A stretch of DNA of 64,000 bases from a virus. The stretch lies in IMG/VR virus record IMGVR_UViG_3300005253_000045, positions 11,629 to 75,628 of that record. One strand, 5' to 3'. The stretch's first letter is position 1; each line of letters begins with the position of its first letter. Under the pieces are notes generated by a model. It was given only the letters and a program-made list of their open reading frames with translations. It did no database searches and was not told the origin of the DNA. The position numbers and the translations under genes are program-made. Positions 4,885 through 50,660 of this stretch are shown here, in pieces.

Positions 4885-5451
4885 ATGCCGCGGCGCCCGT
4901 CCGAGCTGTCTACACGCAAGCCCCTTGTAGCGCCCAGAACACCTAGGGCACCTGGCCGTAAGGAGGCATTCGAGCGGGAGGGCGTAGAACTGCGCCCCCT
5001 AGCCGGCCCCGCTATTCCTATCCCGCCTGAGCAGGAAGAAGCTCTCCTTGCGCGTTATGAGGGGTGGAAGGCACAGTGGAACGGGTCACTGCCAGAGTTC
5101 CTCGTCTTCGAGTTTCTCACTATCGAGAAGAACCTCATACCGAACTTCGACTTTGTATTTCAGCACCCGCTCTTTGGAGGTAGAACACGCTGGGGCGGGT
5201 TCATTCTTGACTTCTTTTTCAACATGCGCCAGGAAGGATGGCGTGTAATGGGTGAACGCTACCACCTCGAGCAGCCGGCCGACCGCGCCCGGGACGCTGT
5301 TGCAGCTACCCAACTCATGGCCCAGGGTATCAAAGTCATTGACCTCTGGGAGAGCGACTTGATGACCCGAAGGGACTTCGTTCTCAACCTAGCCTGGGAG
5401 CAGGGGGCCAGTGTCATATCGCGTGCGCCCTTTGGGGCGGGGGCTGTCTAA
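4885..5451 (+). CDS. DUF559/Vsr-like PD-(D/E)XK nuclease-fold protein
   Basis: FQHP..FILDF..GERYH..ARD..L..QGIKVIDLWE pattern. Confidence 0.6.
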   Translation: MPRRPSELSTRKPLVAPRTPRAPGRKEAFEREGVELRPLAGPAIPIPPEQEEALLARYEGWKAQWNGSLPEFLVFEFLTIEKNLIPNFDFVFQHPLFGGRTRWGGFILDFFFNMRQEGWRVMGERYHLEQPADRARDAVAATQLMAQGIKVIDLWESDLMTRRDFVLNLAWEQGASVISRAPFGAGAV

Positions 5452-21149: not shown

Positions 21150-21380
21150 TTAGGCCTGTGCCGCTGGAATCTTACGGAAGGCGAAGCCTCCCCTTTTCAC
21201 GAGTGCGCTGAATGCACTACCAATGGAGTCAGCAAACAGGACGTCCAGAACGACCTCATTTGATACGCCATCGTACTCGTAGAAGCTATCCTCTCCAAAC
21301 TGGACGACTAGCCTGCCGGTCTCCCGTTCAAACTTGATTGCGGTCATTGCCGCCGATACTACCGGTACGAACTTTGCCAT
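21150..21380 (-). CDS. KTSC domain protein
   Basis: L.VQF..YEYDGV..ADSIGSAF..VK; SD AAGGAGGT. Confidence 0.85.
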   Translation of the reverse strand: MAKFVPVVSAAMTAIKFERETGRLVVQFGEDSFYEYDGVSNEVVLDVLFADSIGSAFSALVKRGGFAFRKIPAAQA

Positions 21381-21436
21381 GGTGGATTACACCTCCTTCA
21401 GTATGTACAACGTTCTTAAACCCACTGTATATCACT

Positions 21437-22066
21437 CTACATTGTTTCTTTCTTCACATCAAGTATCTCGCCCTCGATTATTTCAGAGCCGTCATACATC
21501 TTCAAGCCTTCGAGCATACCCATACTCTCAAGCTCCTTACGCTGTTGAACACTGACGTCCAAGCCACGGCGCAACTTCTCTAGGGCGATACGCTGGCCAG
21601 CCGATAGGTGAGTGATATTGACGTCGCCCTCTATCTTGCGGATGTCCTTGAGATGCCCAGCCGCCTTCATCAGGTCGGCCCACATGCGCGCCCGTACCGT
21701 ATCGTTGGTAGTATTAACGTAGATGGTATCCTTGTGGCTACATTTGGAACAGATATTTGTGACTTTGATGGTCTTGTTGGCCTCGAGAAGTTCCATGGCT
21801 ATGTCGGGGAGGCGCTCCTGCAACTCCGTAAATCTTGCCGCGGTTGCGTCATGAGCGCTCTGAAAGAACTCCTCGTGTGCCCGAAGGAAGGCGGGGTCGT
21901 CTCGCAGCCACCTAGTTACCTGCGCCGACTTAATGCCCACGCCATCGCAAGCATCCCTCTTAGAGCCGTTACGTGATAGAAGGTCGAAGTATCGCCGCTG
22001 GGTGGGGAGTAGCCCGTCTTCTCCTCGAGCGCGGGGCCTCCCTATTAGCGCTCTGTCGTTGTTCAT
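21437..22066 (-). CDS. HTH protein, terminase small subunit-like
   Basis: ACDGVGIKSAQVTRWLRDDPAF HTH; KIEGDVNITH tail. Confidence 0.5.
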   Translation of the reverse strand: MNNDRALIGRPRARGEDGLLPTQRRYFDLLSRNGSKRDACDGVGIKSAQVTRWLRDDPAFLRAHEEFFQSAHDATAARFTELQERLPDIAMELLEANKTIKVTNICSKCSHKDTIYVNTTNDTVRARMWADLMKAAGHLKDIRKIEGDVNITHLSAGQRIALEKLRRGLDVSVQQRKELESMGMLEGLKMYDGSEIIEGEILDVKKETM

Positions 22067-41577: not shown

Positions 41578-41659
41578 TGGTGGAGGTGGCCAGTGTCGAA
41601 CTGGCGTCCGGCCGGCCGCGCCTTAGCGCGTTATCCAACCGTCGAGCCCTCTCACCCCC
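41578..41659 (-). ncRNA. ssrA: Mini-tmRNA (tRNA-like domain only)
   Basis: GGGGGUG/CACCUCC-ACCA acceptor with G3:U70, stemless D-loop ending UCGAC, helix GGUUGG/CCGGCC, GGAC linker, T-arm GCCAG-UUCGACA-CUGGC; TATAAT at 41665-41670. Confidence 0.85.
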
Positions 41660-47104: not shown

Positions 47105-47668
47105 AGAGACGTCCGGTAGCCGCAGGGCTAGCATGGTCGCCTCAGTAGGCGGGTACAAACGTTGGCCCTGTTGCGTGGTCTCGATGGTCATGCACCGCCT
47201 CTTCCAGCGCCTCAAGCGCCCTCATGTGGAGAAGCTCTGAGTCGCTGTAGGGTTCGCCGTGGGCGATTGTGCCCTCGCGGGGGTCTGTAAACTCCGTTTC
47301 GTAGTGTCCCCGCCATTCGCAACGCTGGCAAGCGATGACAACGCCAGCCATACCGTCTGACACTACGCGGAACGCCGATTCAAACATGATGATACCCGCT
47401 AGCACCGTGGGCACTCCATGCTATCAGGCTCTTGGTTTGGTACAAGCCCTAGCCGTAGCTCGCCAGCATATACGGCTTGACTGAATCCTGCGTTGGGCGA
47501 TTGTAGCTCTTCGTTAGAGTATGGCTCGCCGTTGTCGGACGCCCCCATTACATCCTTGAGTGCAGACGTGGTCAGTACCAGTGCGGCTCGTAGCTGTTCG
47601 TTAGTAGCGTTGGGCATGGTCGTTACTCCTATCTGTTGGCGCTAACCCAGCGGCTACCGGATGTCTCT
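47105..47668. repeat. Stem C: 28-bp inverted repeat enclosing ORFs 47142..47414 and 47399..47617
   Basis: Arms 47105-47132 and 47641-47668, 3 non-WC positions. Confidence 0.88.
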
Positions 47669-47669
47669 T

Positions 47670-47974
47670 GAGACCAGCGAAACACGGCGCGTTAGCATGC
47701 GGTTACTTCGACGGGATGCCGCAGTCTGTACAGTTTTCGGGGCAGCAATTCGGGCAGTGGCCGTCGCTGGGTGTAACATGTCCTGGCTCCTCGGTGCATT
47801 CTCCGGCCACACAGCATTGCGGTTCGGTTAGCTGGACGCAGGGTTCGCAGCTACACACGCAGCTATCCTTACCCGTGCAGAATGTATAGGCGTCGTTACA
47901 GTGATTGATTGTTTCGTCGTGTGACATTGCGTGTTGCTCCTCTCTATGCTAACGCGCCGTGTTTCGCTGGTCTC
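47670..47974. repeat. Stem D: perfect 29-bp inverted repeat enclosing Cys-rich ORF 47703..47927
   Basis: GAGACCAGCGAAACACGGCGCGTTAGCAT at 47670-47698; reverse complement at 47946-47974. Confidence 0.92.
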
Positions 47975-48193
47975 TTGAGGGGACACAGAGAGCGGGGCGT
48001 CATAGTTCCCTAGGCTCTCGCTATTAGCCATTCTATACGTGTCCGTGGGCGCTTCCAGCCTATGCCGTGGCATGGCCGGTGCATCTTGTCATGGTCACAT
48101 GTCGAATTGCAGTCAAGGCAGTATAGGACGCCCTCGCCTTCACAGGTAATACATATGAGCCAGTCGGTATCCTTGTATCGGAACATGGCGCAC

Positions 48194-48457
48194 TTACTTG
48201 ACCGCGAATCCGGCAACCTTGCGGGCAATTCTAACATGGCCGGACGTCGTAACGCGGTAGAAGCCTTCAGACGGTACAGCGTGACCGCCTACGGTTACTT
48301 GCTCGCGGGCCGTGTAGTTGAATACTACCGGTACATTGTTTCGCCATTCCCCGATACAGAGTTCGTACGAATGGATTGTCCGGCCGTCTGTATGCATGTG
48401 TGCGCTAGCGCCGGCCTGACCGTTTGCCCAGGCTTGCGCTACCTGTTGGTTCGTCAT
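48194..48457 (-). CDS. Conserved-type phage early protein
   Basis: VAQAWA..IHSY..IG..Y.VTTS.H pattern. Confidence 0.6.
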   Translation of the reverse strand: MTNQQVAQAWANGQAGASAHMHTDGRTIHSYELCIGEWRNNVPVVFNYTAREQVTVGGHAVPSEGFYRVTTSGHVRIARKVAGFAVK

Positions 48458-48478
48458 TGGCGTGTCTCTCCCTTCTCC

Positions 48479-48878
48479 CTCAAAACCCCTTGTCAGTCAC
48501 TCCATGTATTCGCCTAGCCTTTGTACCGTGGGTTCGGCACGGGTACATAGGCCGGCTCTTCCGTCTCGTAGGCGTCGCTCCCATCCTCATTCCATACGTC
48601 GCAGAAGCCTGTATATGCCATCGCATCCGGCCCGCGTAGCTCTGCTGGTATCAGTAGGACTCGAATCGAGTCACTGTATCGCTCCAACGCGTTCCGCCCG
48701 AATGGGTTATTGTCGGCATCTACTAGCTCAAGGTATCTGGTCAGCGCCTCTTCTACGTTGTGGAAGGCACCAGACTGCATCATGTAGCCGCTACCTCGCG
48801 GGTGTTGGACGTGTGCGTGGTACAGCATAGTCGTTTACTCCCTTCGGTATTGGGGAGTGACTGGCAAGGGGTTTCGAG
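48479..48878. repeat. Stem A enclosing ORF 48514..48828
   Basis: Arms 48479-48503 and 48854-48878, 23/25 WC pairs. Confidence 0.9.
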
Positions 48879-48885
48879 AGTGTGC

Positions 48886-49175
48886 TACCAGATGCCACCT
48901 ACAAGGGGTTCCGCGTTGCTGTGTGTTGCTATCCTGCCTTCTGTACCGTTTCAAGACGCTCATAACTTGTTCGGAATCCCTATTGCTCCCCTATTCTCTC
49001 AGAGCTGCAATATGCTTTATGAAACACACGCTTAAACCTGCATCTTGCACTAATTCTCGTAACCATGCTTCACTGTCTGTTTGTTTCATCCGTAGATAAG
49101 CATGGATAATCTCGTGAAGATTCATGTTTGATTTCCTCCTGTTGGGGCGAAACCCCCTGTAGGTGACACCTGATA
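48886..49175. repeat. Stem B enclosing 44-aa ORF 48991..49125
   Basis: Arms 48886-48914 and 49147-49175; all 5 mismatches are G:U on the - strand. Confidence 0.88.
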
Positions 49176-49186
49176 ACGGAGCGTTG

Positions 49187-49525
49187 CCTCAATACCTAGA
49201 GTCAGTCACTCCATGTATTCGCCCTAGTTGCCTGTTGCGGCCTTGCGTGGCTGGGCCGCTTCCGTTGTCCCTAGACGCTCTACCGTCCGTATAGCGTCCG
49301 CCCTGTCTACACAAGGTATGGTTTGTATCTGCGAGTTAAGCGGCCCAGCGAACCAACCGTATGGAGTGCTCCATACCTGGCCGATGATACGCCCTTCACT
49401 GTTACGGATACCGTGTGAGCCGCGCTCAACTGGCGCGTCCGCTTGGAATCTCCCTGTCCGGCTATCTTGTGTCATTGTGCGCTCCCTTCCCAATAGTGGG
49501 GAGTGACTGACTCTAGGTATTGAGG
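49187..49525. repeat. Stem A' enclosing ORF 49224..49475
   Basis: Perfect 26-bp arms 49187-49212 and 49500-49525. Confidence 0.92.
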
Positions 49526-49531
49526 GTGTGC

Positions 49532-49837
49532 TACCAGATGCCGCTGACAAGAGGTTCCCGTGCTGCCTATTAGACGGTTACGTATATATACTTTCGCGTG
49601 TCCGTGTGCTTGAAGCCCCACTCTACATGGCCCCGCCACGGCGTTCCGTGCATCAACATGTATTCTTTGGGGTTGCGGCCGGTGGCTATGAGTGCTTGCC
49701 ACACGGCATCCCATTGTGGGCTGTCACGTTCTGCGAATATGTAGCCGTTTGGGTTCGAGTCTACCGTGCCGTCTGGATTGAACGTAGCCATGGTACGCGC
49801 TCCTATCCCGGAAACCCCTTGTCAGTGACACCTGATA
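49532..49837. repeat. Stem B' enclosing ORF 49570..49791
   Basis: Arms 49532-49560 and 49809-49837; 5 G:U and 1 A:C on the - strand. Confidence 0.88.
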
Positions 49838-50302
49838 ACGGAGCGTTGCCGTGTGGCGAGTCTGACGTCCCGCTCTCTGTGTCCCTCTCTATTTATTTAC
49901 CGAGTGAGCCTCACGAGGTTGCTACCCGTTGCCCCTCTGTCCGCCTCTGCTAGTGCGTTGTCCGTGCGTGCTAGCTGCGCGGGGGCCGTAGTCACCAACC
50001 CCTGTCCGGTATGCTCCTGGCCGGCCATACGGGCCGCTATGCCCTGCCGGCCATTGGAGTGCTGTGTCTTGGCCTATCTCATCAGATACGGGCGGCCATT
50101 CCCGTATGACTACCGCCATAGTTTCGACTGTGCTAGGCGTATCTGCTCTTAGCTTCCGTGCTAACACCTAACCAACATCGGGTACATACCCATACGATAC
50201 CGTTGTACCGTTCAATCTTGCTTCCGCACTCCCCGCACGGGCTTTCGGCGTGTCGCCATGCATATACTCGTGTCATTGTCGCTACTCCTCCTCTCGCCTC
50301 TA

Positions 50303-50339
50303 TCATCGGTAGTCTATCATAGACCTGAAGGGCTGTCAA
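50303..50339 (-). promoter_or_regulatory. Major early promoter (sigma70 overlapping a sigma28-like motif)
   Basis: TTGACA-17-TAGACT; TTCA-15-ACCGATGA. Confidence 0.7.
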
Positions 50340-50384
50340 GGGTATGGAGCTAATCAAGGCCAGGGGCAACTGCGGCTAATGGCG

Positions 50385-50660
50385 AGTGCCTCACTCTAGG
50401 TATCAGGGGTATGGGCGGGCTAACCAGGTGTGAGGGACAATGGGTTGTCAGTGACTCGGGGTGCTGGGTGCGCTAACCAGGTGTCAGTGACTCGGGGTGC
50501 TGGGCAGGCATGCGACATCATCTCGCATGATACATCATCCGCACGATACATGTCTAGTCGCGCCATACATCATTCGCGCCCGCGCAGGGTCGTCCGTGCT
50601 GGTACGGGGGCGTTATGGTGTGTTATGGGAAGGGTGACGTTATGGTGTGGGTGTTGGGAG
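50385..50660. repeat. Non-coding short-repeat region, candidate genome end/pac/origin
   Basis: TGTCAGTGACTCGGGGTGCTGGG x2, GCTAACCAGGTGT x2, ATACATCAT x2, CGTTATGGTGTG x2. Confidence 0.6.

Follow-up and report, generated by a model that had tools for sequence, protein, structure and literature searches.

Long-range helices enclosing small genes of an uncultured phage, best read as rRNA-style processing stalks

Helices around small genes in one operon

Within a 64,000-nucleotide (nt) stretch of an uncultured phage genome (positions 11,629 to 75,628 of the IMG/VR virus record IMGVR_UViG_3300005253_000045; hereafter the window), one non-coding scaffold is found twice around four unrelated small genes. 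A reading made from the letters alone (the sequence-only reading) had proposed that coding sequences are swapped into the fixed expression slots of an integron-like capture platform. In our analysis, the left and right arms of every slot were found to be mutual reverse complements, a property that the sequence-only reading did not state, and the locus is best read as a set of processing stalks in the style of ribosomal RNA (rRNA) around early phage genes, and not as an integron-like capture site.

The record is 75,628 base pairs (bp) long with direct terminal repeats, is rated complete, and contains the window. It was assembled from a marine-sediment metagenome and has a GC content of 56.6%. 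The terminase is at most 27% identical to any terminase in 50,697 phage records, which places this phage far from sequenced phages. The minus strand carries the genes from ~52.8 kb down to 12.7 kb, including every gene of the scaffold region, and all features of the array were read in the minus-strand (sense RNA) direction.

Seven helices of 23-34 bp, with predicted energies of -48 to -64.5 kcal/mol, lie head to tail with abutting arms over positions 47105-49885 (Table 1). The outer helix (47980-48002/49863-49885) encloses the four cassettes of the duplicated scaffold and two more genes, such that four helices (in the order B, A, B, A) and these two genes are nested inside it. Beyond it, the 34-nt helix (-64.5 kcal/mol) encloses a gene for a protein of 74 amino acids (aa) at 47927..47703 and has the top score in the genome (75), and the 29-nt helix encloses a pair of genes (47617..47399 and 47414..47142). 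The arms of the outer, 34-nt and 29-nt helices are single-copy and unrelated in sequence to the A and B arms. Across the array, 17-25 nt separate the end of a 5' arm from the start codon, and the 3' arm follows the stop codon at a distance of 4-11 nt (76 nt in the case of the gene g2, discussed below); given this regular spacing each loop holds only a Shine-Dalgarno sequence and an open reading frame (ORF). The complementary arms of the slots are 232-350 nt apart, one on each side of the ORF.

The helix scorer was run on the whole 75.6-kb genome read as minus-strand RNA, and the long-range helices were ranked. The eight best long-range helices genome-wide (scores 55-75) all fall within 47105-49885, and eight dinucleotide shuffles of the genome gave maximum scores of 46-52, below those of the array. 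In the minimum free energy fold of the 1431-nt sense RNA, all four ORF-enclosing stems are formed. The helices are real, non-random and confined to one operon.

As the A and B helices are each present in two copies, the copies of each were compared for changes that keep or break pairing. Between the two A helices there are five double compensatory changes, two changes from Watson-Crick to G-U pairs and one disruptive change; between the two B helices there are four double compensatory changes, three single changes that keep or repair pairing and no disruptive change. Together, nine double compensatory changes are set against one disruptive change. The B helices additionally differ in stability between strands, with copy II predicted at -52.3 kcal/mol as sense RNA versus -34.0 kcal/mol for the plus strand, and copy I at -58.6 versus -36.3 kcal/mol. 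This asymmetry arises because the six G-U pairs of each B helix become A-C mismatches on the other strand, and the B helices are absent from the plus-strand helix list at a score of at least 42.

An independent 2.2-kb groundwater contig (L018) was found to have four ORF-sized loops closed by helices of 25-35 bp. The first of these helices encloses exactly a homologue of the array gene g1 (69% identical), and the others enclose three other ORFs. Three of the four helices are more stable on the sense strand, by 7-9 kcal/mol. The g1 homologue is the only gene that L018 has in common with this phage, and no arm sequence is common to the two. Judged from these two sequences, it is the architecture, and not the arm sequence, that is conserved between them. 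Covariation, strand asymmetry and an architecture kept without its sequence are three lines that point to the sense RNA as the level at which the arms act, and the conservation of the arms can be explained at the RNA level given the compensatory changes, the G-U pairs that exist in the sense strand only, and the adjoining helices of unrelated sequence.

Further down the same operon, another helix of 22 bp was found (45983-46004/46103-46124; 91% complementary, -40.5 kcal/mol), which closes a 98-nt loop, too small for the usual gene unit. Separately, the assembly of run X3 breaks at both 34-nt repeat arms (47670-47699 and 47946-47975) and leaves a 306-nt contig between them; such breaks are expected from assembly-graph ambiguity at a perfect inverted repeat and are not evidence of inversion.

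Table 1. Window positions of the helix arms, enclosed genes and neighbouring elements; arms are named in the direction of the sense RNA.
Feature	Position	Strand	Remarks
Outer helix, 5' arm	49863..49885	-	23 nt, 96% complementary to 47980-48002; duplex -51.6 kcal/mol
Outer helix, 3' arm	47980..48002	-	7 nt past the stop of the 75-aa gene
B helix copy II, 5' arm	49809..49839	-	31 bp, uninterrupted, with 49530-49560; as minus-strand RNA 24 Watson-Crick, 6 G-U, 1 A-C
B helix copy II, 3' arm	49530..49560	-	begins 9 nt past the stop codon
A helix copy II, 5' arm	49500..49525	-	ends 24 nt before ATG; 26/26 complementary to 49187-49212; -51.6 kcal/mol
A helix copy II, 3' arm	49187..49212	-	begins 11 nt past TAG
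B helix copy I, 5' arm	49147..49177	-	31 bp with 48884-48914; 25 Watson-Crick, 6 G-U, no mismatch
B helix copy I, 3' arm	48884..48914	-	76 nt past the stop codon
A helix copy I, 5' arm	48854..48880	-	27 bp with 48477-48503; -48.0 kcal/mol
A helix copy I, 3' arm	48477..48503	-	10 nt past TAG
34-nt helix, 5' arm	47946..47979	-	unrelated sequence; 94% complementary to 47665-47698; abuts outer 3' arm
34-nt helix, 3' arm	47665..47698	-	4 nt past the stop codon
29-nt helix, 5' arm	47640..47668	-	pairs with 47105-47133; -53.5 kcal/mol
29-nt helix, 3' arm	47105..47133	-	8 nt past the stop codon
Linker GGCAACGCTCC	copy II 49840..49850; copy I 49178-49188	-	before the B 5' arm; identical in both copies
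Degenerate third B3'-A5' junction copy	50377..50498	-	orphan arms, upstream of promoter-like site; direct-repeat family D1, 78% identity
Payload g4	49570..49791	-	ORF, 73 aa; one homologue, 75% identity; GC 0.55 (ordinary)
Payload g3	49224..49475	-	ORF, 83 aa; family motif TPYGWFA..SQIQ.IPC
Payload g2	48991..49125	-	ORF, 44 aa; one homologue, 73% identity; compositionally foreign
Payload g1	48514..48828	-	ORF, 104 aa; conserved family, 40 homologues at 61-83% identity
Two further small genes	48010..48457	-	ORFs of 87 aa (48457..48194) and 75 aa (48237..48010); inside the outer helix only
Sigma-70-like promoter match	50311..50339	-	TTGACA, 17 nt, TAGACT, TG before; 10/12 in consensus scan; sequence match only
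Hammerhead type II ribozyme (predicted)	50068..50129	-	Rfam RF02276, 39 bits (gathering score 37), full-length match

The duplicated module and its payload genes

The duplication that drew attention to this locus was found again on the minus (coding) strand, with copies at 48477-49188 and 49187-49850. The 5' flanks of B (49850-49809 versus 49188-49147) are identical over their first 26 nt, beginning exactly at the linker GGCAACGCTCC. The junctions formed by the B 3' and A 5' arms (49560-49497 versus 48914-48851) are ~80% identical over ~62 nt, including an identical 17-mer, GGCATCTGGTAGCACAC, and the A 3' flanks have an identical 23-mer, GGCGAATACATGGAGTGACTGAC, in common. As had been claimed for A and A', conservation begins at the TAG stop, the onset of the A 3' flank being 0-1 nt past it, and resumes at the Shine-Dalgarno sequence, with GAAGGGAG ahead of the ATG in both A leaders. 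The interiors between these conserved flanks have no DNA or protein similarity. Adjacent arms at each junction are direct copies of each other and not inverted ones.

With up to three mismatches allowed, the 17-nt core occurs eight times in the window, versus 0.14 expected, and six of the eight occurrences are inside 48484-49829. A scan of the genome found the A and B motifs confined to 48477-49850, plus the degenerate copies at 50377-50498. The latter, a third copy of the junction that is only weakly complementary to the A and B arms (scores 38-40), shows that the module was duplicated and decayed more than once. The linker GGCAACGCTCC contains CUCC, a possible anti-Shine-Dalgarno sequence, which pairs with the GGAG of the payload in local folds, with z-scores that are not significant.

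Efforts to find the module elsewhere, as proposed by the sequence-only reading, gave no slot in a second state. A BLASTN search of the scaffold (48400-49900) against the 50,697 phage records returned no match, and a 22-mer of the A arm had none in the JGI metagenomes. In IMG/VR, a 16-mer of the B arm had six matches, which were taken as chance since all are without the A-core motif, and the degenerate 17-mer core had 12 single matches, likewise attributed to chance since none has an inverted partner. Polymorphism of the slots, for which the mapping of reads had been proposed, was looked for in source-sample contigs from three DNA runs, which show the same sequence with no joints and no slot variants, although contigs hide rare variants.

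The four payloads have no protein or DNA similarity to one another and are not diverged paralogues, in line with the original claim, and because each has homologues elsewhere we regard all four as real genes of different families. None of them had a family match in Pfam or PHROG, nor did the 87-aa and 75-aa genes (48010..48457) that lie inside the outer helix. The B payloads had been described as richer in AT than the genome; this was borne out for the 44-aa g2 (GC 0.39) and not for the 73-aa g4 (Table 1). The GC content of g2 lies four standard deviations below the genome mean of 0.566 and within the lowest 0.03% of 135-nt genome windows. The only other spot in the genome that is as AT-rich is 21365-21534 (135-nt GC of at most 0.41).

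Members of the g1 family are found widely in phage contigs of sediment and groundwater origin. An alignment-based model of g1 was confident (predicted local distance difference test score, pLDDT, of 92; predicted template modelling score, pTM, of 0.80), and structure searches with this model found no relative in the PDB and no Foldseek match at E<=0.001, the best VIA match having a Z of 3.8. No match to the g1 family was found in GTDB genomes, and the family thus gives no clue to a prophage or host. The g3 family has 30 representatives at E<=0.001, the best at 70% identity, and no match in IMG/VR. Large proteins of 327-1348 aa (such as P0049 and P0068) were also matched by the g3 domain, over 5-13 tandem stretches, which indicates that the domain is both a repeat unit of cellular or viral giant proteins and a stand-alone phage protein. 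Two other proteins of this phage, one of 252 aa and one an AAA ATPase, were searched for relatives in IMG/VR and had no match.

Processing stalks weighed against the alternatives

The reading that we favour, and to which we would give a probability of roughly 60%, is that the arms are mRNA stalks comparable to the helices that flank rRNAs and are probably cut by the host RNase III, and that A-B is a duplicated two-stalk module in which the genes were replaced. An early polycistronic mRNA would be transcribed from the minus strand, and the A and B scaffolds would be the two strands of long-range helices, each of the seven head-to-tail helices joining the two flanks, 5' and 3', of a single small gene. 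Duplexes of 23-34 bp would be expected substrates of the host RNase III; cutting is proposed from the known preference of this enzyme for duplexes longer than ~20 bp and from analogy with rRNA stalks and the early mRNA of T7. Such cutting would release single-gene messages with their two ends still paired, and hence resistant to exonucleases. The CUCC found in or beside most 5' arms may, on slight support in the window, mask the Shine-Dalgarno sequence until the 3' arm is transcribed. As would be expected of stalks, long-range duplexes of at least ~20 bp form from the flanks of the units (seven helices), and pairing is kept by compensatory change (two copies per helix, in one genome).

In bacterial rrn operons, leader-trailer helices (processing stalks) around 16S and 23S rRNA are cut by RNase III (for background, PMC10250234). 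Similar to these stalks, the helices described here pair the immediate 5' and 3' flanks over a long range, exceed 20 bp, and are nested and abutting around head-to-tail units. What the helices enclose here, in contrast, are protein-coding cistrons of a phage early operon, complete with their Shine-Dalgarno sequences. The two systems are unrelated in sequence, and cleavage here is an expectation. RNase III sites between the genes of the T7 early mRNA split the transcript into single-gene messages, and structures at the ends stabilise these messages. Here, too, a phage early transcript is divided by double-stranded elements, with cutting again presumed. The T7 sites are local intergenic hairpins with an internal loop, whereas the strands of each duplex here are on opposite sides of a gene, as a result of which both ends of the message would stay paired together. 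A further comparison can be made with hok/sok, a single toxin gene with an antisense RNA, in whose mRNA a fold-back pairing of the 5' and 3' ends competes with structures at the ribosome-binding site. Long-range 5'-3' pairing in the mRNA of a small gene, competing with local structures at the ribosome-binding site, is common to both; unlike hok/sok, the array comprises seven units, and neither toxins nor antisense promoters are in evidence. A search of the literature on ORF-enclosing helices in phage mRNAs found no published description.

As to how the payloads came to differ, the A-B duplication would have come first, and recombination inside the arms or close to them would later have replaced the ORFs. 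These arms would be elements of expression and processing that incidentally provide portable homology, and not sites for a dedicated recombinase. The homology that they offer amounts to 17-26 nt of identity within 40-62 nt of similarity, and the differences between the cores of the copies may serve to keep each arm paired to its own partner. The sequence-only proposal that unrelated coding sequences were swapped inside conserved flanks held up in this respect, given the unrelated families, the GC content of g2, and the absence of the other genes of this array at all 27 g1 loci (described in the next section). Exchange of payloads mediated by the arms is plausible on these comparisons. Since the arms were found nowhere else in the phage, IMG/VR and JGI collections, a population-wide slot with varying payloads could not be demonstrated.

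We would like to note that several points weigh against the reading of the arms as processing stalks. The covariation sample consists of two copies per helix from one genome. For five of the seven helices, stability is the same whichever strand is read, and the specificity for the sense strand comes from the B pair and from L018. The same arms with a different payload were not found in the JGI metagenomes, in IMG/VR or in the source-sample contigs, and most contexts of g1 homologues are without a long enclosing helix. Shuffled sequences fold as well as the local anti-Shine-Dalgarno elements of the window (z of +0.6 to -1.4). A search of sequencing runs for this sequence returned no RNA run; it returned three DNA runs from one marine-sediment study, which is probably the source. 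Lastly, the complete phage genome is without an RNase III gene.

Of the alternatives, the most probable is recombination itself, in which the modules would serve primarily as homology for the general recombination of ORFans between co-infecting phages and the pairing would be secondary or incidental. The nearest known DNA-level analogue is the PeSL (promoter plus stem-loop) of T4-type phages, a repeated intergenic module that spans the interval between a stop codon and the Shine-Dalgarno sequence following it, and that mediates ORFan replacement (Arbiol et al. 2010, PMC2839356; Comeau et al. 2014, PMC4122927). It consists of a sigma-70 promoter and a local stem-loop terminator and acts through DNA recombination (PMC2839356). 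The array modules resemble PeSLs in being repeated, in their boundaries and in lying in a region of small ORFans with unrelated payloads, including the foreign g2, and units could be deleted or duplicated through the direct-repeat arms, which are 646-709 nt apart. Unlike PeSLs, they have no internal promoter-like site and form no local terminator hairpin; instead, they pair across genes at the RNA level. Homology as such needs neither complementary flanks nor compensatory changes nor G-U asymmetry, and three of the helices are single-copy with no homology to anything. No RecT or Erf recombinase was found in the genome, and there are no recombinant variants in the source-sample contigs, though contigs hide rare variants. 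We therefore regard shuffling as the primary role of the modules as unlikely.

Less probable still is a translational switch or closed loop without cleavage, in which the ribosome-binding site would stay masked by the 5' arm for as long as the 3' arm has yet to be made, or the stem would bring stop and start together for re-initiation. The four 5' arms of L018 are all rich in C and U and form local folds with the GA-rich Shine-Dalgarno region (-15.5 to -31.9 kcal/mol, with z down to -5.0), and the CACUCC of the A arms in the window can pair with GGGAG(U). In contrast, the leaders in the window fold no better than shuffles, and the helix around 47617..47142 shows no such pairing. In addition, perfect duplexes of such length would be hard to keep intact in the presence of RNase III.

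The integron-like platform of the sequence-only reading, in which the arms would be recombination sites where a recombinase inserts and excises cassettes, is not upheld by these data and is in our view very improbable. Like the attC and attI sites of integrons, the arms are conserved imperfect inverted repeats between which promoterless, unrelated ORFs lie in a row, with flanks that run from the stop codon to before the Shine-Dalgarno sequence; one of the payloads (g2) is compositionally foreign, and orphan copies of the arms lie upstream (50377-50498). The absence of a site-specific recombinase, which had been noted for the window, extends to the complete 75.6-kb genome, where the PF00589 profile finds nothing while all control genomes score, and no tyrosine or serine recombinase, and thus no IntI-type integrase, was found. 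The inverted arms are not folded locally like attC, with 3' hairpins, but lie 232-350 nt apart across the ORF. The A and B cores have diverged and yet pair with their own partners, which a shared protein-binding site would not predict. There are two alternating types of arm, the adjoining helices have unique sequences, and the arms are absent from the phage records and from the IMG/VR and JGI metagenome collections searched.

Least credible of all are miniature transposable elements carrying passengers, each a mobile unit of an ORF and inverted arms served by a transposase in trans: inverted repeats of 25-31 nt do flank single ORFs, in two families (A and B) of two copies each, but the copies are strictly adjacent and alternate in fixed order, no target-site duplications were seen on reading the junctions, every other helix is unique, the arms do not recur in the rest of the genome or in the public collections searched, terminal inverted repeats do not explain G-U pairs in the sense strand, and no transposase was found in the genome by the searches for tyrosine and serine recombinase families, no search having been made beyond those families. 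Two further candidates were ruled out. Archaeal bulge-helix-bulge sites or circular mRNAs do not fit helices without 3-nt bulges, and the arms are not promoters, since CTGACA is found in the F-type arms but no -10 element at the proper spacing.

Building on the reading of the arms as processing stalks, a more speculative version, which we put forward only tentatively, would make the stalks dual-purpose: an RNA slot that excises a clamped single-gene message and licenses its translation, with arms that double as homology for ORF exchange, the whole being a counterpart of the integron that needs no recombinase. Any ORF that came to lie between a pair of arms would then be correctly processed and expressed, and the A-B module with its 39%-GC newcomer would be a snapshot of this process.

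If the helices are cut as we propose, phages would apply the logic of rRNA maturation to mRNAs, turning an early transcript into single-gene messages with clamped ends. This would explain why intergenic sequences can be better conserved than genes in ORFan-rich early regions, would give a testable rule by which newly acquired genes become expressible at once, and would yield compact, orthogonal parts with which the genes of synthetic operons can be insulated. The value of this array lies in its two duplicated helix pairs, which are an internal test of covariation, and in the one slot with a clearly foreign gene (g2).

Neighbouring elements and the relatives of g1

Upstream of the array, the promoter-like site at 50339-50311 is the nearest such site to the modules, and a consensus scan found no promoter-like site on the minus strand within 48477-49850; there is no terminator-like site in that interval either. 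Between this site and the outer helix, in the same sense transcript, a hammerhead ribozyme is predicted directly past the stop of a 50-aa zinc-ribbon-like gene (50285..50133). The cores CUGAUGA, GAAA and GUC are all present and the sequence agrees with type II (stems I and III closed, stem II open), the GGCC of a loop could form a pseudoknot with the GGCC of the tail, and the predicted cut is between 50108 and 50107. Judged from its sequence, the upstream hammerhead suggests that the transcript is processed, which fits maturation by cutting. A short contig from another organism in the same sample also matches the hammerhead core. The ~180 nt between the hammerhead and the outer helix (49886-50067, minus strand) are GC-rich (0.63-0.68) with no convincing ORF and a fold that is not exceptional (z -1.5), and may be a non-coding leader.

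To place g1 in context, 27 loci were used; its closest homologues, P0002, P0005 and P0007 (Logan/ENA contigs of 3.7-19.7 kb), were left out of this set. The relatives that were fetched lie on contigs of 38-67% GC with entirely different flanks, which carry promoters of their own with 5' hairpins, repeated motifs associated with starts, or PeSL-like promoter repeats. The other genes of this array were found at none of the 27 loci. One contig (L023) has a short 12-bp version of the helix around its g1 homologue. Because most contexts are without a long enclosing helix, the layout is not tied to the gene g1. Predictions made with duplexfold for long g1 flanks across loci were dominated by huge interior loops and were used for z-scores only. 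The third ORF of L018 had no match in IMG/VR.

Several arrangements were seen among these relatives. In AT-rich relatives (L009 and L019 at 4955-5400, and downstream in L020, L021 and L024), the g1 homologue lies between direct repeats of ~40 nt, TCAAGGCCGTATGTTGTTAAACTGTTAAAAGAAAAGG, each with a hairpin before it and a start codon after it, an arrangement that is PeSL-like. In sediment contigs (L011-L013), a repeated motif, GCCGGACGGATTAG, lies ahead of the Shine-Dalgarno sequence of several genes, and one of these contigs (L013, 2870-2979) has a local hairpin of 32 bp with a 46-nt loop directly upstream of its g1 homologue. Three others (L008, L015 and L032) have their own promoter upstream of the g1 homologue (TTGACA, 17 nt, TACTGT-type), with a GCTACC..GGTAGC hairpin after it, where the transcript is predicted to begin.

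Elsewhere on the minus strand of this phage, positions 41578-41659 match the Rfam model of transfer-messenger RNA at 53 bits; the match covers the tRNA-like ends of the model only, ~306 model positions being replaced by 15 nt.

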